The notes beneath the pieces are model-generated. The model did no database searches. It saw nothing but the letters and a program-made list of their open reading frames with translations, and was not told where the DNA came from. From NCBI GenBank assembly GCA_019326865.1, contig GCA_019326865.1_4101.1: a DNA stretch of 64,000 bases. The stretch is one strand, 5' to 3'. A program made the translations under genes and the position numbers. Of this stretch, positions 4,595 to 30,604 are shown piece by piece. Source of the DNA: a phage. Within the stretch, counting starts at the first letter, position 1. Every line of letters starts with the position of its first letter.

Positions 4595-7336
4595 ATGGCT
4601 TCTAGACGAATTATAGGAAACGCAGATATACTAGGGAATTTAAAAATTAATGGAAAGTATGCATTACGTTCCCTTAATGGTGTTCCTGCTGACTCTGCTG
4701 GTAAAATCACTTATCAATATTATGACAAAGCGGAAGTAAATCAGATGTTTGATATGCTTCCAGTTTCAAGGGTAGGTGATCAAGATTACCTACCAATGAG
4801 TATTAACGGAACTTTTGAAGGTGCTTCTTCCTTTTCATTTGCAAAAATAATGCAACCTTGTATCATTGAAAATGATGGTACTGGTGTAATTTTACGTGCA
4901 GGTACAAATGGAAGTTCTTATGGTTACTATTATACTTATATTAAAAATATAAGAGATATAGAAACACTAACTCAAGATAATATAATTACAACCAATACGA
5001 TGTATAGACCGTCTGTGCTACCAAGTACTGATTACATTTATGAATTTTATGGGTCAAATGCATATGAATTACTATTTTGGGAATCAACTGATAGAACATC
5101 ATATTACCTTACATTAACAAATGAAACATTGAATGAATCAGCACACAAGCATTGCAGAATTCCAAAAACAGCAATAACAAATAAACCAATATATGCACAC
5201 ATCGTAAATGATTCAGTTTATATATGGTGTATGGATTCAAGTGTATTGAGTAGTGTTCGCGGGTGTGCATTTATTATATACACAGTACCTTTAACTGCAT
5301 TTAATACTGGTTCAGTTTCTACCGTAACACAGATTGGTGGTTATTCAGGAAGAACTATAAGAGATGCAACATATACTGCATCTAATAATATTCGCGTTTA
5401 TGATAGCTATTCTATTTTAGGTTCAGGTGGTGATGCACTAATAGTATATGATAATGGTGTTTCCAGAATAGATTATTGGGAAAATAACGTATTTAATACC
5501 CAAGCAGTTCTTAGCCCAGATGGTACAAAAATAAGAGTTGCGATCTATCCAGGGTTTCGTGTCTTTACCAAAACAAAAACATCTAGTGTATATGCACTTG
5601 GTATTAGCTTTACATATGATATCAGTACTAAAACAATGACACTTGATGGTTCTGAACGTGGTCCAATCAGAGTATCAGCTAATACATCAACTGGTAGTAT
5701 AACAGTAAGAAACCCGTTTTCAATCAATATGGAAAACTTTACAGGGTTTTATGACGGTGCACTTGGCAACTATGGTTCAATCTGTCAAACTTCTGATGGT
5801 TTTGTTTTCACTACCAAAGCAAGATGGACATCCACACCAACATATGCAGTACAAACATACAAAGTTTCTGGTACACCTTATGATAGTTGGGTCGCTAAAA
5901 CACGTACTGCTAGTAATTTAAAACGTGTCGAAGTAATGCCAGTTTATGGCTCCCCTGTCGGTGAAAACTTAATAGGTGTTCGTTTCGTAGATAAACGTAA
6001 GATACTTGTTGCATGTTCTGGCACTGCTGATGGAATTTCTTATGGTTATGATAGTACAGTTTTTACTGAAATAGGTGAGAATCCGACTTATGTTTATAAA
6101 AACTTGGAACAAAATACCACAATGAATGGTTTTGCACCATCAAGTAATAGACACTATTTAAGTACTGATTACAAATATGCAGGTATGATAACATTGGTTG
6201 ATGCAAATGGAAATGTCAGCACTTATGGTTCTTCGTTAATAGAAGACATCGATAAACCAGCGTATGGAAAATTCGACCCAGTTACAATGGACTTCGACAG
6301 TAATAGATATGAAATTTCAGGAACAACATTATCAAGTATAGGTGATAATGCAATTGCTAAAGCTGGATTGTCTGGAATAACTGATCATAAAACTGTTTTT
6401 TATTATGTACCTGATACTACATATTCTAAATCGATTGCAGTCACTTCTGCATTAAACGGTACTACCAATGTGTGTTATATTATTTTTTCCGAAATATCAT
6501 GTAGTGCAGTTGGTACAAGTGGTACTATAATTTTACGTGGTATTAATGTTGATACAGCAAGATATACATCAATGACGAATACATACCAAATTTCACCAAA
6601 TGAAATGGTCAAACGTTGGGCTGGTATGACGGTTTCTAAGTTTAATGGTTTTAACTACTTAGGCGTGAACATTTTATATGGCATTGATACCCCAGGTTGG
6701 ACTCGTTATCCTAACATGATTGCTAAAGTGAAAAATGGTATTATTTCAAGTCAACGATATATGGAAACAACTTATATTTCAAACGCACAATTTGATATAG
6801 GTACAATTCCAGGGATTGGGTTTGGATATTACCAAATGAACAAAAACGATTATCAAACTAAATCAGTTTTTGCTGTATGTGGTACTACTGAAGCAGATAT
6901 GGATAAACTAATATCTGGTAATGAAACGATATCACAGTACTTAGTTGTTGCTTCACAGGATGTGGCACAAGGGTTTCACGTATACTTTTCACAAGAAGTA
7001 CCAGTTTTCTTGGGTGGAAAGTTTGCAAAGATACCACCGACTATGATAGACTTATCTACCATAAGTACTACACCAGAGAATTCAACATTCTACATATATG
7101 CGGTGATGGATAGAGATACATCCACAGCATCGTATCAGATATCACTACATCAATTATCAGAAACTATGACATCAACATACATTGGTAAGATAGTAACTAA
7201 TAATAATGGTATTGCATCAATCGAGTCTGAAAAAGTTTCCAGATTCTTGCTATACCGTCCAAGTACCCACAGTCGTGGATCTGCTATCCCAGCTAGTTCT
7301 GGGTTACCATCACAATCTGGCTCCCGTTGGAAATAA
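4595..7336 (+). CDS. tail fibre protein, paralog B
   Basis: start moved to second ATG (MASRR...), which carries the same AAAGGRATATATAT-ATG initiation region as the gene at 1280; N-terminal LPVSRVGDQDYLP module. Confidence 0.6.
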   Translation: MASRRIIGNADILGNLKINGKYALRSLNGVPADSAGKITYQYYDKAEVNQMFDMLPVSRVGDQDYLPMSINGTFEGASSFSFAKIMQPCIIENDGTGVILRAGTNGSSYGYYYTYIKNIRDIETLTQDNIITTNTMYRPSVLPSTDYIYEFYGSNAYELLFWESTDRTSYYLTLTNETLNESAHKHCRIPKTAITNKPIYAHIVNDSVYIWCMDSSVLSSVRGCAFIIYTVPLTAFNTGSVSTVTQIGGYSGRTIRDATYTASNNIRVYDSYSILGSGGDALIVYDNGVSRIDYWENNVFNTQAVLSPDGTKIRVAIYPGFRVFTKTKTSSVYALGISFTYDISTKTMTLDGSERGPIRVSANTSTGSITVRNPFSINMENFTGFYDGALGNYGSICQTSDGFVFTTKARWTSTPTYAVQTYKVSGTPYDSWVAKTRTASNLKRVEVMPVYGSPVGENLIGVRFVDKRKILVACSGTADGISYGYDSTVFTEIGENPTYVYKNLEQNTTMNGFAPSSNRHYLSTDYKYAGMITLVDANGNVSTYGSSLIEDIDKPAYGKFDPVTMDFDSNRYEISGTTLSSIGDNAIAKAGLSGITDHKTVFYYVPDTTYSKSIAVTSALNGTTNVCYIIFSEISCSAVGTSGTIILRGINVDTARYTSMTNTYQISPNEMVKRWAGMTVSKFNGFNYLGVNILYGIDTPGWTRYPNMIAKVKNGIISSQRYMETTYISNAQFDIGTIPGIGFGYYQMNKNDYQTKSVFAVCGTTEADMDKLISGNETISQYLVVASQDVAQGFHVYFSQEVPVFLGGKFAKIPPTMIDLSTISTTPENSTFYIYAVMDRDTSTASYQISLHQLSETMTSTYIGKIVTNNNGIASIESEKVSRFLLYRPSTHSRGSAIPASSGLPSQSGSRWK

Positions 7337-20421: not shown

Positions 20422-20832
20422 ATGATTGAAATGGAAGGCATTCTGGTGTATGATCCAGACCGTGGAGCTATGAAAAAGAAGAAGGATTTCTGGTTAGTCC
20501 TACAACTTCCATTACAGTTGGTTAGATACTACCAGTACTTCATTCGAACTGACTTACATATTGACATTAAAGACCCACAATGGGGGGCACATGTCAGTAT
20601 TGTTCGTGGGGAAGTGCCACCGAATCCAGAGTACTGGAAAAAGTACCATGGTAAAAAAATCAAAATAAAATTTAATCCTGATATCATACAAGTGAAAGAT
20701 AAAAAGAACCCTGGTTCGTTCTTTATTATAGAGTTTGATGATGAATTTATTGGTCATATTCGAAATGAATTGGGATTACAATCAAAGTTCTTACGTTATC
20801 ACATTACAGTAGGTAGAACTTACTACGATTAG
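20422..20832 (+). CDS. hypothetical protein
   Basis: 136 aa ORF. Confidence 0.55.
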   Translation: MIEMEGILVYDPDRGAMKKKKDFWLVLQLPLQLVRYYQYFIRTDLHIDIKDPQWGAHVSIVRGEVPPNPEYWKKYHGKKIKIKFNPDIIQVKDKKNPGSFFIIEFDDEFIGHIRNELGLQSKFLRYHITVGRTYYD

Positions 20833-21942: not shown

Positions 21943-22275
21943 ATGCTAAATCTAAATATTCAAGGCAACGTTGATATCACTCCAGCAATCCAAGATGCTA
22001 TTTACAATGAAGCAAAAAGTCTGGATAAGTACCGTACTTCTTCAGTACTAGACATTGGTGTTCATGTTAAGAAAGAGCATAAAACTCAATATGCTGTAAC
22101 TTTAACTGCTGGTAGTAAATCAGTAACTGCTGATGATGCTGATTTGTATAAAGCAATTGTTGAATCTTTTGATAAGATGGAAACTGTATTCAGTAAAGAC
22201 AAAAGCATTAAATTACACCGCCGAAACCATCCAGAACACCCCGTTCTTGATGATTTGACAGAAAACGAAGAGTAA
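21943..22275 (+). CDS. hpf: ribosome hibernation promoting factor (HPF/YfiA family)
   Basis: MLNLNIQGNVDITPAIQDAI...YAVTLTAGSKSVTADDADLYKAI aligns along its length with E. coli HPF (MQLNITGNNVEITEALREFV...). Confidence 0.8.
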   Translation: MLNLNIQGNVDITPAIQDAIYNEAKSLDKYRTSSVLDIGVHVKKEHKTQYAVTLTAGSKSVTADDADLYKAIVESFDKMETVFSKDKSIKLHRRNHPEHPVLDDLTENEE

Positions 22276-22328: not shown

Positions 22329-22724
22329 ATGAATTATTCCTGGATGGAAATTGTAAAATCTATAATATCAACACATGATATGGACTTACCTGAACACCTA
22401 GTTATTAATAGATGGTTCTATCCATATCCAGATAACCGTTGTGTTGGGATTGGATTTTTTATTAATGAAAAATCTCAATATATTGGATTAATTGAAGATT
22501 ATACAAAACCCAACATTGCGTTCTCTATTGAGTTGAATGTAGATCACATAAAATACTACACTAATAAAATGGACGAAGACGATGGTGATGTTATAATTCC
22601 AGCAGAAATAGACGAAGCTTCATTTTTTCAGTTATCATTAATCCATGATGTATCTGATATTACTTATGATAATGTGAAAGACCTTTTTATATTGTACAAT
22701 AAACTGTATAATTACTTTTTATAA
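22329..22724 (+). CDS. hypothetical protein
   Basis: 131 aa ORF. Confidence 0.55.
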   Translation: MNYSWMEIVKSIISTHDMDLPEHLVINRWFYPYPDNRCVGIGFFINEKSQYIGLIEDYTKPNIAFSIELNVDHIKYYTNKMDEDDGDVIIPAEIDEASFFQLSLIHDVSDITYDNVKDLFILYNKLYNYFL

Positions 22725-22737
22725 TGGAGATAAATTT

Positions 22738-22923
22738 ATGGAATATACAATATGTATAGTTATATGTATCATATCCTTACTAGTCGGGGTTGGTGTGATG
22801 ATTTATTGTGATGCAGAACCAAGTACAGAAGCAGGAACAACTATTGAACTTAAGCCTGGTATTAAGGTAAATGATTCATATTGTTACGATCCACATAGTA
22901 ATAAGTATGCGATTTGTCTATGA
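22738..22923 (+). CDS. small membrane protein
   Basis: 61 aa; N-terminal TM helix ICIVICIISLLVGVGVMIY. Confidence 0.5.
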   Translation: MEYTICIVICIISLLVGVGVMIYCDAEPSTEAGTTIELKPGIKVNDSYCYDPHSNKYAICL

Positions 22924-23330
22924 AAAAGTTTGATATTAAACCTATGATTGATGCTATCGAAATTAAATTAAAAAATACTAAAAAGCCAGATAGTACAGGT
23001 TTGTTCTTTAGTTTAGATAAAATGTATTATGAAACACACGTGTCAAGTTATGATAGAACAGGAAATCTCTTCATCCGTACATATAACTTATTTTATAGTG
23101 AAGATGTTTTTATGATAGATATAAATCTGGATGAAAGTATAGTGTTGATGTATATTGAGGATGTTCAATCCACAGAACAACGAAACGGGACTCTTCCTAT
23201 TGCTGCTACAGAGGAAGAGTTTTTGCAATATCAGTTCATTGAGGATACCTTTGGTATTGACTTTGATACATATCAGAGTATAATGAGGGTATACGAACTT
23301 TATGAGGATTATGTGATTGGACGTTACTAA
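22914..23330 (+). CDS. hypothetical protein (paralog pair with ORF at 23317)
   Basis: C-terminal block QYQFIEDTFGIDFDTYQSIMRVYELYEDY resembles QYMFIDDTFSIDYPSFQCILDIHAKYYDR. Confidence 0.6.
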   Translation: MSMKKFDIKPMIDAIEIKLKNTKKPDSTGLFFSLDKMYYETHVSSYDRTGNLFIRTYNLFYSEDVFMIDINLDESIVLMYIEDVQSTEQRNGTLPIAATEEEFLQYQFIEDTFGIDFDTYQSIMRVYELYEDYVIGRY

Positions 23331-23739
23331 AATTCCAAAATTTAATGAAACGTTAAAGTACTTTGCTGAACACGAAATCAGTACTGAAAGACGTGGTTTA
23401 ATTACATATAATCAACATCGTGTTATGTACACTAATAATTTTCAGGGTACTGTTCGTATTAAATATCGTAATGCACTCGAAGACAATGATGAATTGTTAA
23501 TTTTACTAAGAAAAAGTAAGATTGAATTGACATACGTAACTCACCATATTGAAAGTGAGTTGATGTGGCACACCCTATCAAAAAAAGAAGGTTCATTACC
23601 AGTTGTTGATAATGGTCCTGAAACACTTGATCAGTACATGTTCATTGATGATACATTTAGTATTGACTATCCTTCATTTCAGTGTATACTAGATATACAT
23701 GCAAAATATTACGACCGTCTACGTGACAGATTAATTTAA
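23317..23739 (+). CDS. hypothetical protein (paralog pair with ORF at 22914)
   Basis: 140 aa; see paralog. Confidence 0.6.
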   Translation: MDVTKIPKFNETLKYFAEHEISTERRGLITYNQHRVMYTNNFQGTVRIKYRNALEDNDELLILLRKSKIELTYVTHHIESELMWHTLSKKEGSLPVVDNGPETLDQYMFIDDTFSIDYPSFQCILDIHAKYYDRLRDRLI

Positions 23740-23874: not shown

Positions 23875-24987
23875 ATGAAAAAGTATTTGGTTGGAGGTTA
23901 TACGAGAGATCGTTTAATGGGCATCCGTGCAAAAGACAAAGATTATGTCATTGTTGGTGCAACTGAATCCGATATTAAGTACTTGCAAAGTATTGGTTAT
24001 AAGCAAGTAGGCAAGGACTTCCCTGTGTACTTGAGTCCAGAGGGTAATGAACACGCATTGGCTCGTACCGAGCGTAAGACTGGTACTGGATATGGTGGCT
24101 TCGAAGTGAATACAAAAGGTGTAACACTAGAACAAGATCTATATCGCCGTGATCTCACAATCAATAGTATTGCGTATGATCCAGTACTACAGATTCACAT
24201 CGACCCTTATGGTGGGAAAGCTGATATCAAGAACAAAGTACTTCGTCATGTATCAGAACACTTTAAAGAAGATCCATTGCGTGTTCTACGTTTGGCCCGT
24301 TTCGCTACACGTTACTCAGACTTTTCTATCCATGAAAGTACAGAGGAACTTGCTATTGGTATGGTCAATAGTGGTGAATTAGATCATCTTGTTCCAGACC
24401 GTGTTTTTGTAGAATTTGAAAAAGCATTTTCTGAAGAAAAACCTGCAAAGTTCCTTAAGACGCTAAGTAAATTTGGTTATTATGAGAAAGTTTTCAAAAC
24501 ATCTCTAACTAAAAAGAATTTAGACCTAATTGATTATATTTCTGAAAACTGTACTGATGTATATAAGCCATATTTTTTATGGTCAGTACTTCTTGAAAAT
24601 GAAGAAGTAAATAATGATTCAGTACTTAACGGTGCTATTAAAGTTCCAGTTAAGTATGTTAAATTTAGCAATTATATCAAACGTTTCCGTGATGATATCA
24701 AAACATTTCGTAAAAAGACCCCAAATGAAATGGGACAGTTATTACTGGAAATGAATATCAAGAATAACGGTGGTGAAGAATTTCTTTACAAAGTACTGGA
24801 ATATTTCATTCTAAGTAAAGAAATTGATTTAGAACTTGAAGATCTAATTATTAAAGTTTATGATCGATATACTGATGTTGAATTACCTGATATTCAGCAA
24901 TTGGTTAAAGATGGTGAACTAGAAACGTCAGAAATTCGTGATTTTGTTTGTGAACTTCGTTACGAAGCAATCAAACAAATGTTCTAA
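23875..24987 (+). CDS. cca: tRNA nucleotidyltransferase (CCA-adding enzyme, class II)
   Basis: LVGGYTRDRLMG...KDKDYVIVGAT...DFPVYLSPEGNEHALARTERKTGTGYGGFEV...RRDLTINSIAYD parallels the E. coli Cca head domain; 370 aa, no obvious HD domain. Confidence 0.8.
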   Translation: MKKYLVGGYTRDRLMGIRAKDKDYVIVGATESDIKYLQSIGYKQVGKDFPVYLSPEGNEHALARTERKTGTGYGGFEVNTKGVTLEQDLYRRDLTINSIAYDPVLQIHIDPYGGKADIKNKVLRHVSEHFKEDPLRVLRLARFATRYSDFSIHESTEELAIGMVNSGELDHLVPDRVFVEFEKAFSEEKPAKFLKTLSKFGYYEKVFKTSLTKKNLDLIDYISENCTDVYKPYFLWSVLLENEEVNNDSVLNGAIKVPVKYVKFSNYIKRFRDDIKTFRKKTPNEMGQLLLEMNIKNNGGEEFLYKVLEYFILSKEIDLELEDLIIKVYDRYTDVELPDIQQLVKDGELETSEIRDFVCELRYEAIKQMF

Positions 24988-25094: not shown

Positions 25095-25496
25095 GTGATG
25101 GTCAGATACTTATCGGACATACAACACGGACAGAAACATTGGGATTTACCTAAAGGAAAAGCAGAGGGCGATGAAACGTTCAAAGAAGCTGCTGTGCGTG
25201 AATGTTTTGAAGAGACAGGATATAAAATCGATGAAGATGATCTTCTGTTTCTTGGTGATGTATCCTATAGAAAGGGAAAAAGGTTGGTTCTTTTCTTTTA
25301 TACTGCTAAAGACAAGCCTGTACCAGATGAATTAGTATGTAAAAGCACTTATACTAATAGATATGGTAAGAGTCATCCAGAATTGGATAAGTTCATGTAT
25401 ATTGATGTACGAGAATGTCAAAAGTATTTGACTGAACGAATGTGTAACAGTATTATAAAAGCTGTTAAAGCTTTTCAAAGAAATAAAAGGAAATAA
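25095..25496 (+). CDS. Nudix hydrolase (N-terminal strand encoded in another frame at 25064-25153)
   Basis: Nudix box GKAEGDETFKEAAVRECFEETGY; GTG start; upstream frame encodes MRYSCGIIFYRDGQILIGHT. Confidence 0.7.
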   Translation: MMVRYLSDIQHGQKHWDLPKGKAEGDETFKEAAVRECFEETGYKIDEDDLLFLGDVSYRKGKRLVLFFYTAKDKPVPDELVCKSTYTNRYGKSHPELDKFMYIDVRECQKYLTERMCNSIIKAVKAFQRNKRK

Positions 25497-25497
25497 T

Positions 25498-25746
25498 ATG
25501 AAAGTTAAAATTTATGGTCGCACGACTGGATGTAAATTTTGTGATACTGCAAAAGCTGTGTGTGAACAAAATAATTTTGATATGGAGTTCATTGATATTG
25601 TTGCTGAAGGTATTGATGGTGCTAAACTATCAGAAATTTGTGGTGAACCAGTTCGTCAAGTTCCACAGATTTTCGTGAATGATGTTTATGTACCAGGTGG
25701 TTGTACTGGATTTATCGAAGGACTTAAAGAAGGTCGTTGGAAATAA
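25498..25746 (+). CDS. nrdC: glutaredoxin (NrdC-like)
   Basis: 82 aa; CKFC redox motif near N-terminus; overall similarity to T4 NrdC layout. Confidence 0.75.
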   Translation: MKVKIYGRTTGCKFCDTAKAVCEQNNFDMEFIDIVAEGIDGAKLSEICGEPVRQVPQIFVNDVYVPGGCTGFIEGLKEGRWK

Positions 25747-26286: not shown

Positions 26287-26316
26287 AAGGACTCTGTAAT
26301 TGGAGTCCTTTCTTTT
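26287..26316 (+). terminator. intrinsic terminator
   Basis: stem AAGGACTC/GAGTCCTT, T-run. Confidence 0.65.
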
Positions 26317-26327
26317 CGGAGAATATA

Positions 26328-26804
26328 ATGATTCATGAACACCGAGGTAATCTGTTTGAATTATTCAGTACTGTTACCGATGATCAAAATGCATTACATA
26401 TTATTGCTCACGGATGTAATGCTCAAGGTAAGATGGGTTCCGGTTTCGCAAAGGAACTAAGGAATCGCTACCCAATGGCATATGATGATTATAAAGCATA
26501 TGAAAAGGAAATGGGATTTCTTAGAATTGGACAAATTGCATATTCAGCAATTAACGATAATTTGATTATTGCAAACTGTATTACCCAAAAAATGTACGGT
26601 AATGACGGTGCTAAATATGTCAGTTATGATGCAATTGACGATGTGTTCAAACATCTAAATTATTTTTGTAAAGTTGATCAAGATGTTCATGTACATTTCC
26701 CGAAAATTGGAGCCGATTTGGGTGGCGGTAACTGGAACGTTATCAAAGAAATCATTGATCACCGACTGGTCAATGCAGAAAAACACTTATACATTCTAAA
26801 ATAA
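26328..26804 (+). CDS. macro domain protein (ADP-ribose binding/processing)
   Basis: HIIAHGCNAQGKMGSGFAKEL and FPKIGADLGGGNW match the macro-domain N-x(6)-G-x-G and hydrophobic-P-x-I-G-x-G signatures. Confidence 0.65.
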   Translation: MIHEHRGNLFELFSTVTDDQNALHIIAHGCNAQGKMGSGFAKELRNRYPMAYDDYKAYEKEMGFLRIGQIAYSAINDNLIIANCITQKMYGNDGAKYVSYDAIDDVFKHLNYFCKVDQDVHVHFPKIGADLGGGNWNVIKEIIDHRLVNAEKHLYILK

Positions 26805-27149: not shown

Positions 27150-27527
27150 ATGGCTGCTAATGACGTTAAAGTAAAAACTATTCAAGCTATCGTAGTACTG
27201 AAAGATTCAACTCCATCTCCTAAAGAATTGGTAATGGCTGGGATGACAATGCTTCATCAATACAATCCTGAATCACCAAATTATGTTCAAGAATACGAAG
27301 CAAAGCAGTTTAAAGAACATTGGCAGTCATGGATTAAAGATAATGAAATGGAGCAAGTTGTTTATGCTGCTGATGACATTTTCGAATTAGAACAAATTGA
27401 ATATCTAGCAGGTCAACAATCTGTGCCGTTGAGTATCTTCGGTAATGGTGAAGAAGTCTTAGTTCTAGGACCATTCACTGCCGATGTAATTACACACTTA
27501 CTAAGTAATTGTGAAAAAATTGGCTAA
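27150..27527 (+). CDS. hypothetical protein
   Basis: 125 aa ORF. Confidence 0.55.
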   Translation: MAANDVKVKTIQAIVVLKDSTPSPKELVMAGMTMLHQYNPESPNYVQEYEAKQFKEHWQSWIKDNEMEQVVYAADDIFELEQIEYLAGQQSVPLSIFGNGEEVLVLGPFTADVITHLLSNCEKIG

Positions 27528-28582: not shown

Positions 28583-28609
28583 ATTTTAAACATTAAAAAA
28601 GAGTACTAT

Positions 28610-30604
28610 ATGAATAATGAAGAATTGAAAAAACTTTTGTTGTCAAAACATATTAATTCATGGGTACATTTATACAAAGGGGACTCTCATGTGAGGGATC
28701 TCCTTTCTGTTTTTGGAATAGAACCAAAAACTGATTTCGAAATATATAAAATTCTATATATGTTCATGAATGATATAACAACAGTTCCAACTGCATATTG
28801 TGGAAAAAAAGCAAGATACAAAAATTATCAAAAAGGATTTTATAAATTTTGTGATGATTATGTAATTAATAAGAAAAATACGTGTAATGTATGCCATGAG
28901 ATGTATTATAAAAATCGAACTAATAAAACAAAATCAACATTAATGAATATGTATGGTGTATCTAATGTATCCCAGATCCAAGAAGTAAAACAAAAGAAAG
29001 AAAAAACTAACATTGAACGTTATGGTGTCTCTACTAATTTACAGACAACAGAATCTAAAGAGAAAATCAAACAAACTAATATAGAGCGATATGGATGTGA
29101 ATATCCAAATCAAAACCCTGAAATATTCAATAAAGTAAAAGAAACAAATTTAAAAAAGTACGGTGTTGAATTCCAAAGTAAAAGAAATGAAGTAAAAGAG
29201 AAAGCCAAAAATACAAATATATTAAGATACGGAACTGAGTATTCTTTATCATCACCGACTATTCGTGAAAAAATCAATAAAACAAATCTTGAACGATATG
29301 GTGGAAACCCACTATCAAATAAATTTATCCAAGATAAAATAAAAAACACCAACACATTGAAGTATAATTCATTTTACCCAATGAGCAATATGAGTGTTCA
29401 GGAAAAAGTTCATAATACCAATGTGGAGAGATATGGTGTAAAACACCCAGCCCAAAATAATTCTATTATTGAAAAAATGAAAGAAACCACAAAAAATAGA
29501 TATGGTTCAGAACATTACTCACAAACTGATGAGTATAAAGAAAAAATGTCATTTGCTCGTCTAGATGAAAGATATAATATAATTGTTGCAAATATTGATA
29601 AAAACTATATTCCATTATTTGAAAACACCGACCTGATGATGAAAGTTAATACAGACGAATACCCATTTTGGTGTGAGTATTGTGATGATTTGTTTTATAG
29701 TAAGTATAAAAATCATAAAGTGAAATGTAAGTGTCAGAAAAATAATGGTCATTCATTGAAAGAGAAAGATTTAGTTGATTATATAAAATCATTAATACCA
29801 AATATGCAAATTATAGAAAATGACCGTTCAGTACTGAAACCTAAAGAGTTGGATGTGTATATCCCTGACCGAAATCTAGCTATTGAATTTAATGGTGTGT
29901 ATTGGCATAATGATGAAAATGTCAATTCCACTAAACATCAAGATAAGGTATTGGATTGTTTAAAACATGGGGTAAATCTTATTCACATTTATGAAGATGA
30001 ATGGGATAACCCATTAACAAATAAAATTATCAAGGAACGTTTAAAGAATAAACTTCTAGTGTCAAATAGAATTTATGCTAGAAAATGTACTGTTAGAAAT
30101 ATAGACAAACAAGTAAGTAATATGTTTACTAAATCACACCATATTCAAGGTGTTGCACAAGCAAGTATTCACATTGGTCTTTATTATGGAAGTGATTTAG
30201 TTGCAGTTATGACCTTTGGTAAATCAAGGTTTGATAAAAACTATGAATATGAATTAATCAGATACTGTTCATCCGGTACAGTTGTTGGTGGTGCATCAAA
30301 ATTACTAAAATATTTTGAAACAGTATATAATCCACAATCATTATTGACATATGCTGATATGGATTGGAGTAGTGGTGATCTTTATACAGTTCTTGGCTTT
30401 GAGTTTGATAGCTATACAGAACCTGGATATTTTTATTATGACCCACAAACACATGAGAGGATTTCACGTCAGAAATGTCAAAAACATAAATTGGTCAAGA
30501 AAGGTCATGATATCAACTTAACCGAGAGACAAATTTGCTGTGAGGTATTGGGATATTATAAGATTTACAACTCTGGTAATATAAAATACACAAAAAAATA
30601 TTAA
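28610..30604 (+). CDS. multidomain protein: Cys-rich N-terminus, nine tandem repeats of about 23 aa, PD-(D/E)XK nuclease-like domain, C-terminal domain of unknown function
   Basis: repeat core K-x-T-N-x-E-R-Y-G occurs nine times; ELDVYIPDRNLAIEFNGVYWH resembles the DUF559/Vsr-like nuclease core. Confidence 0.6.
   Translation: MNNEELKKLLLSKHINSWVHLYKGDSHVRDLLSVFGIEPKTDFEIYKILYMFMNDITTVPTAYCGKKARYKNYQKGFYKFCDDYVINKKNTCNVCHEMYYKNRTNKTKSTLMNMYGVSNVSQIQEVKQKKEKTNIERYGVSTNLQTTESKEKIKQTNIERYGCEYPNQNPEIFNKVKETNLKKYGVEFQSKRNEVKEKAKNTNILRYGTEYSLSSPTIREKINKTNLERYGGNPLSNKFIQDKIKNTNTLKYNSFYPMSNMSVQEKVHNTNVERYGVKHPAQNNSIIEKMKETTKNRYGSEHYSQTDEYKEKMSFARLDERYNIIVANIDKNYIPLFENTDLMMKVNTDEYPFWCEYCDDLFYSKYKNHKVKCKCQKNNGHSLKEKDLVDYIKSLIPNMQIIENDRSVLKPKELDVYIPDRNLAIEFNGVYWHNDENVNSTKHQDKVLDCLKHGVNLIHIYEDEWDNPLTNKIIKERLKNKLLVSNRIYARKCTVRNIDKQVSNMFTKSHHIQGVAQASIHIGLYYGSDLVAVMTFGKSRFDKNYEYELIRYCSSGTVVGGASKLLKYFETVYNPQSLLTYADMDWSSGDLYTVLGFEFDSYTEPGYFYYDPQTHERISRQKCQKHKLVKKGHDINLTERQICCEVLGYYKIYNSGNIKYTKKY

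Follow-up and report, generated by a model that had tools for sequence, protein, structure and literature searches.

What would a jumbo phage gain from a small, stand-alone macrodomain protein, and which ADP-ribosylated substrate would such a protein act on? The question is raised by one gene in a stretch of phage DNA of 64,000 nucleotides, the whole of which is here called the window. The region is 91 to 96% identical to Asteriusvirus jumbo coliphages such as UE-S1, ph0011, G17, Sharanji, slurp01, 121Q, and PBECO4. The orthologue in 121Q, gp544, carries the RefSeq name “macro domain-containing protein” along with the note “Appr-1-p processing domain protein,” and the domain annotation is therefore already public; in other records the gene is labeled “phosphatase” or “hypothetical protein.” The Sharanji genome paper, the RaK2 paper, and the NAD-jumbo-phage paper say nothing about this gene.

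The gene and its upstream signals

The gene and the elements directly upstream of it are as follows.

26328..26804, + strand: stand-alone macrodomain gene encoding 158 aa, orthologous to 121Q gp544 (from the ORF list, the 121Q annotation, and PHROG 335)
26318..26321, + strand: Shine-Dalgarno sequence GGAG, separated from the ATG by 6 nt (read from the sequence)
26287..26317, + strand: intrinsic-terminator-like hairpin with T-tract (from a terminator scan, fold energy, and conservation)

The position given in the sequence-only reading was exact, with the + strand, the ATG start codon, and both of the motifs that it quoted present in a frame of 158 codons; the motifs are HIIAHGCNAQGKMGSGFAKEL, which comprises residues 24 to 44, and FPKIGADLGGGNW, which comprises residues 124 to 136. 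The ORF is a real gene and not a chance ORF. No ORF of at least 158 aa was found in any of 20 shuffles of the window, and of the 19 codons altered between this gene and its 121Q counterpart, 17 differ synonymously and 2 non-synonymously, while the comparison with ph0011 yields 37 synonymous and 20 non-synonymous changes. The mostly synonymous substitutions relative to these phages point to a gene that is under purifying selection.

The ribosome-binding region is near-identical in 121Q and ph0011 and takes the form of the purine-rich CAGGAAAA in a phiKp_21-like relative, with only two columns of the GGAG motif being invariant across all four compared sequences. The terminator-like hairpin abuts this Shine-Dalgarno sequence. 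It consists of a 10-bp stem (26287-26310) followed by TCTTTTC, with the T-tract at 26311-26317, and the corresponding RNA has a minimum free energy of -13.8 kcal/mol (z -1.97). The hairpin is kept in 121Q and ph0011, and in the Klebsiella-phage (phiKp_21-like) relative the inner stem CTCTG/CAGAG is replaced in a compensatory manner by TTCAAA/TTTGAA, with the T-tract kept. Its conservation with compensatory stem changes marks it, therefore, as a real structural element, and the upstream terminator that had been claimed from the letters is thus borne out by its stem, T-tract, folding energy, and conservation; the phage G17 record has a “terminator” feature annotated within the same interval. In a terminator and promoter scan, the stretch from the hairpin to the start codon yielded no sigma-70-like promoter.

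Macrodomain fold and glutamine-type catalytic residues

The protein matches the Pfam Macro profile (PF01661) over 115 of its 118 positions but with a score of 16.5 bits (E 0.0081), which lies below the gathering cut-off of 22; many family members with 40 to 70% identity have precomputed PF01661 matches. As the Pfam match is sub-threshold, the family call rested on PDB, structural, and PHROG evidence. The match to PHROG 335 has an E value of 4.5e-46, and among PDB sequences the matches are to BT1257 (E 1.5e-15), SCO6735 (1.6e-11), Poa1p (2.7e-6), and DarG (about 1e-2). In a library of defense systems, the sole match is to DarG and is confined to its macro part. An AlphaFold2 model built from 45 homologues (pLDDT 94.3, pTM 0.90) displays, as judged by fold matches, the three-layer alpha/beta/alpha macro fold, and a search of BFVD placed a Tk.4 orthologue among the best viral structural matches to the model (TM 0.80). 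Some of the phage homologues in BFVD, such as Tk.4 of Acinetobacter phage 133 and the version from Escherichia phage SUSP2, are far longer, at 230 to 260 aa, and hence some Tk.4-like proteins have an extra C-terminal region.

Conserved residues were placed by aligning the 158-aa protein and its family members with DarG, TARG1, BT1257, SCO6735, T4 Tk.4, and PhiKZ gp104, and later with homologues from eight further phage groups (Lw1, Melville, nt-1, the Felix-O1-like KMM4, Schickermooser, phi92, Pseudomonas VCM, and Streptomyces BillNye). For DarG and TARG1, the aligned sequences agree exactly with the PDB chains, and conservation was counted over 81 viral family members. The following segments, given by their codons, stand out.

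26409..26450, + strand: H28-G-C-N31 and glycine-rich loop 1, G34-K-M-G-S-G39-F-A41 (alignments)
26583..26588, + strand: T86-Q87 (alignments)
26589..26633, + strand: family-specific long “mobile loop,” K88-A102, YGxDGxKYVSYDA (conservation and model)
26700..26735, + strand: diphosphate-binding loop 2, P125-K-I-G128-A-D-L-G-G-G-N-W136 (sequence and alignments)

The ADP-ribose-binding motifs N31, G37-S-G39, and G128...G132-G-G134 are all present and are conserved in 72 to 81 of the 81 members. The macrodomain assignment made in the sequence-only reading is thus upheld by PHROG 335, the PDB matches, and a confident model in which the macro fold was indeed obtained, and the glycine-rich loop and later block that it had singled out as macro-domain motifs both align with ADP-ribose-binding loops. 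H28 aligns with H24 of SCO6735, H32 of TARG1, and H23 of Poa1p, and N31 aligns with N22 of DarG and N27 of SCO6735; each is found in 80 of the 81 members, as is P125, while G128 is found in all of them.

The column that sets the subclass is that of Q87, which is present in 81/81 members. Here DarG (K80, “PTKK”), TARG1 (K84, “ITKK”), and the PhiKZ AdfM (K78, “PTKD”) have their catalytic Lys, whereas SCO6735 has its essential Gln85. The 158-aa protein reads “ITQK,” and Gln is likewise found at this column in BT1257 and SCO6735 (“IGQH”), in T4 Tk.4 (“YTQF”), and in all 8 to 9 further phage groups sampled. G132, in turn, stands at the column of D125, the second catalytic residue of TARG1. The mobile loop that follows Q87 is longer than in DarG and TARG1, as in the Gln-type subclass: the distance from the catalytic Gln or Lys to Tyr is 13 residues in this protein, 14 in SCO6735, and 15 in BT1257, versus 11 in DarG and 9 in TARG1 and T4 Tk.4. 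Within this loop G91 and Y100 are invariant (81/81) and a basic K/R96 is found in 68/81 members; it is also where the model is least confident, with a block mean pLDDT of 79. From these alignments and the model, we regard as near-certain the assignment of the protein to the ALC1/TARG1-like macrodomains and, within these, to the Gln-type subclass of SCO6735 and BT1257; the MacroD/YmdB-type O-acetyl-ADP-ribose deacetylases are not its closest affinity in either structure or sequence.

Candidate substrates and the genomic neighborhood

A member of this subclass, SCO6735, strips thymidine-linked ADP-ribose from DarT-modified ssDNA, outperforming DarG or TARG1, rescues Escherichia coli from DarT, and protects Streptomyces coelicolor (PMC9411070). 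Its activity is abolished in the Q85A and Q85E mutants, nearly abolished in N27S, and lowered in the PB-loop glycine mutant G128E, with data for H24Y also reported (PMC9411070). The mechanism proposed for it is water mediated, with the backbone of residue 25 positioning the water and Gln85, held by Asn27, binding the ring oxygen of the distal ribose, and its authors argue that reversal of thymidine ADP-ribosylation is the unifying function of the class (PMC9411070). SCO6735 also cleaves Glu-linked ADP-ribose on protein (PMC9411070) and uracil-linked ADP-ribose on ssRNA (PMC13036486); the enzyme is thus promiscuous, and class membership, therefore, does not fix the substrate.

Taking these findings together, we propose, with moderate confidence, that the phage protein is most likely an AdfM-type, Gln-dependent ADP-ribosyl-thymidine glycohydrolase, an orphan without a cognate toxin, that counters DarTG2. 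By homology to relatives with 27 to 30% identity, its substrate would be ADP-ribosylated thymidine on ssDNA. The glycine-rich loops 34-41 and 125-136 would hold the ADP-ribose diphosphate, while N31 would lock Q87 in a rotamer able to form a hydrogen bond with the distal-ribose ring oxygen. In single-stranded phage DNA, a water positioned by the backbone could then cleave the N-glycosidic link that joins thymine to C1'' of the ribose, and the release of free ADP-ribose would leave the phage template replicable and transcribable again. The mark so erased would be the one that host DarT2, the toxin of DarTG2 defense systems, had placed on the DNA.

In a pairwise alignment with SCO6735, H24, N27, and Q85 are conserved as H28, N31, and Q87. 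Several features nevertheless count against the anti-DarTG2 role. The identity to characterized relatives is only as high as stated above, and in the same alignment the DNA-holding lysines of SCO6735, K34 and K89, correspond to Ser38 and Met89, with Val25 corresponding to Gly29; other basic residues, K35, K88, and K/R96, lie near the missing lysines. The protein is mildly acidic (pI 6.3), as is T4 Tk.4 (5.9); with Mycobacterium tuberculosis DarG at 6.7, we discarded the isoelectric point as an uninformative indicator of DNA binding. Further, the gene lies just upstream of neck and tail genes, directly after a terminator and without a recognizable promoter, and in this lineage it sits among translation and tRNA-maintenance genes and not among recognizable anti-defense genes.

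If the proposal is correct, Asteriusvirus jumbo coliphages carry a ready antidote to DarTG2, which would bear on forecasting the hosts that therapeutic jumbo phages can infect, as DarTG2, a toxin-antitoxin defense, is found in pathogenic E. coli. Q87 and N31 are identified as the residues to mutate. The main value of the finding would lie in a second Gln-type AdfM subfamily with a longer basic loop and in a host-range predictor against DarTG2-bearing E. coli; otherwise, this is an ordinary accessory gene whose domain is already annotated.

The genes that the sequence-only reading had placed in the same cluster are all present in the window, as listed below.

21943-22275: HPF/S30AE gene
23875-24987: CCA-adding/PolyA_pol-type nucleotidyltransferase gene
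25095-25496: Nudix gene
25498-25746: glutaredoxin (Grx) gene

The syntenic order is lysozyme, HPF, CCA, Nudix, Grx, (YqeY), macro, PTH2-like, gp13 neck, dNMP kinase, and sheath, and the block persists in relatives of the Klebsiella phiKp_21-like and Xanthomonas XaC1-like kinds whose macrodomain identity falls as low as 43 to 45%. Outside these, a Nudix-box gene occurs within 3 kb in 1 of 62 more divergent viral loci, and across 80 viral loci no recurring partner gene of the macrodomain was found. The Nudix-macro adjacency reflects synteny within the lineage and is no demonstration of functional coupling; the macro gene acts like an orphan, “antitoxin-like” gene that stands alone. Among Nudix subtype profiles the best for the neighbor are RNA-pyrophosphohydrolase and MutT, far below their cut-offs, with NudE at only 19 bits. 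A partnership with the Nudix protein as an ADP-ribose pyrophosphatase was rejected, with no subtype model above its cut-off and the adjacency as rare as it is in distant loci.

Several other genes in and around this neighborhood deserve mention in their own right. At 20422-20832 (+) lies a 136-aa ORF corresponding to the “hypothetical” 121Q gp531, with two H-x-S/T motifs (HVSI and HITV) and a 2H-SAK phosphoesterase Pfam score of 22.7 bits, below the cut-off of 27. This ORF probably encodes a 2H phosphoesterase that has escaped annotation and might process RNA 2',3'-cyclic phosphate or Appr>p. The second gene downstream of the macro gene, at 27150-27527 (+), is a 125-aa ORF corresponding to 121Q gp546. 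Its orthologues in three relatives show weak matches to PTH2 (peptidyl-tRNA hydrolase 2), and that of ph0011 is labeled “aminoacyl-tRNA hydrolase”; the window copy itself has no Pfam or NCBIfam match and only one to PHROG 14786, which is of unknown function. A 664-aa DUF7487 gene (28610-30604, +), labeled “endonuclease domain-containing protein” in ph0011, separates the gp13-like neck gene from the dNMP kinase gene. It is present in the query phage, ph0011, and a phiKp_21-like Klebsiella phage and absent from 121Q, and the megablast matches of most relatives end at about position 28585 of the window; by this presence/absence pattern it looks like a mobile, homing-endonuclease-like insertion. 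Upstream of the gene for the CCA-adding enzyme, tandem paralogous small ORFs occupy 22329-23739 (+), in which a common C-terminal motif links the ORF at 22914-23330 to that at 23317-23739 (BLASTP 9e-10), with the ORF at 22329-22724 showing a weak relationship (E 0.006); no Pfam match was found among them. ARAGORN found no tRNA or tmRNA gene in the whole 64-kb window, although a CCA-adding enzyme and further genes related to tRNA and translation are encoded there.

Beyond this lineage, two T5-like metagenomic contigs (L008 and L009) have, at 5001-5465, a macro homologue with 45% identity in an early-region-like island, alongside a cpYpsA/SLOG-domain gene, an HD_4 gene, Gad2 (anti-Gabija), dCMP deaminase, and T5 A2, a context consistent with an anti-defense island. 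In Escherichia phage Schickermooser, the gene upstream of the macro homologue is annotated as PRTase_3 (pfam15610), which is possibly another NAD/ADP-ribose-related association.

Alternatively, the protein might process a small-molecule ADP-ribose derivative, as an Appr-1''-p phosphatase comparable to Poa1p, an O-acetyl-ADP-ribose deacetylase, or a degrader of an ADP-ribose-derived immune signal or toxin; we consider this unlikely. Iyer and colleagues are said to have proposed small-molecule ADP-ribose processing as the main role of phage macro domains, and the probable 2H phosphoesterase at 20422-20832, sub-threshold as it is, together with the Poa1p fold match, lends this some color. Against it, no KptA/Tpt1 homologue is found in any of the Escherichia phage records, the 32 from Asteriusvirus included (kptA is present in the host), while the 2H match falls short of its Pfam threshold. 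An RNA-repair module of KptA, 2H, and macro proteins was accordingly rejected, there being no KptA in the phage lineage and only a sub-threshold 2H candidate. Nor does the Nudix neighbor argue for such chemistry, with no subtype model above cut-off and the adjacency missing in 61 of the 62 divergent family loci. In yeast Poa1p itself (PDB 6LFQ), an ADP-ribose-1''-phosphate phosphatase, the catalytic column is occupied by Ser (“FTSS”) at the Q87 position, and although its H23 aligns with the near-invariant H28, the mutant-probed S30 and F152 align with the variable K35 and with G132. The T4 family member, moreover, was found specifically for DarTG2, and the label “phosphatase” is a historical annotation and was not derived from assaying a phage protein.

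Another possibility, to which we assign a rather small chance, is that the protein reverses ADP-ribosylation of bases in RNA (tRNA, rRNA, or mRNA; e.g., uracil-linked) and not in DNA, as part of a translation-maintenance module. The syntenic block of the Rak2/121Q-like jumbo phages, with its 2H-like, lysozyme, HPF, CCA, Nudix, Grx, (YqeY), macro, and PTH2-like genes, is suggestive in this regard, as is the loss of the DNA-contact lysines of SCO6735; however, synteny within one lineage is no independent evidence, and the neighbors differ outside it. We also know of no bacterial defense that ADP-ribosylates uracil in RNA, which counts against this reading. At the biochemical level, SCO6735, TARG1, and DarG all remove uracil-linked ADP-ribose from ssRNA, SCO6735 efficiently so (PMC13036486). 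RNA-targeting ADP-ribosyltransferase defenses do exist, CmdTAC being one (PMC11618068), but the adenine modification made by CmdT is described as irreversible (PMC13036486). T-even phages are restricted by CmdTAC (PMC11618068) though T4 carries tk.4, which suggests that Tk.4 does not reverse this modification. A still smaller chance attaches to the more specific idea of a translation-protection module in Rak2/121Q-like phages, in which the substrate would be base-ADP-ribosylated RNA, such as tRNA or mRNA bearing uracil-ADPr, produced by an undescribed host defense with an RNA-targeting ADP-ribosyltransferase. If true, this would be the first phage “RNA de-ADP-ribosylase” counter-defense.

About as improbable as the general RNA reading is a mono-ADP-ribosyl hydrolase acting on Glu/Asp or other side chains of proteins, either reversing a host ADP-ribosyltransferase defense or tuning a phage transferase. 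T4-like phages with Tk.4 also carry the ModB transferase. They likewise carry Alt and ModA (T4 Alt and a ModA orthologue; bioRxiv 10.1101/2025.11.20.689424), although an ADP-ribosyltransferase goes unmentioned in the detailed genome analysis of the Asteriusvirus Sharanji. SCO6735 and TARG1 hydrolyze Glu-linked ADP-ribose on PARP1 E988Q (PMC9411070; PMC5087735), and the Q85A mutant of SCO6735 loses this activity too (PMC9411070); however, the Lys84/Asp125 dyad used by TARG1 on ester-linked protein substrates is absent here, being replaced by Q87 and G132, and the T4 genetics point to DarTG2.

Lastly, a non-catalytic binder of ADP-ribose, or a stoichiometric inhibitor that sequesters ADP-ribose ligands or blocks DarT directly, has precedents in catalytically dead SCO6735 Q85A, which still inhibits DarT by interaction (PMC9411070), and in macrodomains that are pure readers (PMC9503650), but it appears highly improbable for a family in which the SCO6735 catalytic residues testable by alignment (H24, N27, Q85, and the PB-loop Gly) are invariant or nearly so across 81 members, the pattern expected of an enzyme.

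Relationship to known ADP-ribose erasers

The proposed anti-DarTG2 glycohydrolase can be set beside several known systems. The DarG antitoxin, whose macrodomain structures from Thermus aquaticus (5M31/5M3E) and M. tuberculosis (5M3I) were compared, differs from the phage protein in having the catalytic Lys80 where the latter has Q87, in its C-terminal DarT-binding domain, and in its adjacent darT. The NCBIfam DarG model (NF048014) gives 33.7 bits against a cut-off of 250, over profile positions 18-139 of 338 only, and against the PADLOC DarG model the score is 40 bits, with the match spanning positions 17-136 of 329. No darT partner is present at the locus, the flanks being small hypothetical ORFs and the Grx, Nudix, and PTH2-like genes. 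Lacking the catalytic Lys, the second domain, and a toxin neighbor, and with scores far below cut-off, the identity of a DarG antitoxin was rejected.

SCO6735 of S. coelicolor (PDB 5E3B) and BT1257 of Bacteroides (PDB 2FG1/2AFC) are cellular proteins, whereas the query is viral, with 27 to 28% identity to them. It has “TQ” where they have “GQ” and “MGSG” where they have “WGKG,” and its pI of 6.3 contrasts with about 9.

A phage enzyme of established activity is gp104 (AdfM) of PhiKZ, which clears DarT2-written ADP-ribose from DNA, protects the phage, relieves DarT2 toxicity, and broadens the range of hosts (Cell Rep 2026, PMC13309987). Like the query, it is a stand-alone jumbo-phage macrodomain matching PHROG 335, but it is DarG-like, with N23/K78 and a “PTK” motif, in contrast to the Gln-type query, and BLASTP aligns only 26 residues of the two. 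The PhiKZ AdfM is imported into the phage nucleus; Asteriusviruses are, to our knowledge, not known to form one.

A further parallel is offered by T4, in which tk.4 was the single gene depleted on a DarTG2 host and its clean deletion sensitized the phage, the gene being named adfM (bioRxiv 10.1101/2025.11.20.689424). Tk.4 and the query are both stand-alone proteins of about 155 to 158 aa from E. coli phages that match PHROG 335, and they align by BLASTP at 3e-12 with 30% identity. The HGCN motif recurs in both, as do the MGSG and PxIGAGxGxGNW loops, each has T-Q at the catalytic column, and they match the same PDB members, with BT1257 best in both; their scores against the PADLOC DarG model are likewise close (40 bits for the query and 36 for Tk.4, versus 132.9 for PhiKZ gp104). 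The loop after the catalytic Gln is, however, 4 residues longer in the query (13 versus 9 to Tyr), and the family-specific YGxDGxKYVSYDA motif in this loop is a feature of the query, unlike T4 Tk.4. Their settings also differ, tk.4 lying in the tk-vs early region and the query gene just upstream of neck and tail genes, and of the two it is Tk.4 whose anti-DarTG2 function has been shown genetically. By their catalytic columns, phage AdfMs appear to be of two mechanistic kinds, a Lys-type that is DarG-like (PhiKZ) and a Gln-type that is SCO6735-like (T4 Tk.4 and the query). With tblastn at E ≤1e-5, relatives of the 158-aa protein were found in 1,797 of 50,697 phage records, and this breadth, together with the Gln found in all of the further phage groups sampled, suggests that the Gln-type is the common phage solution.
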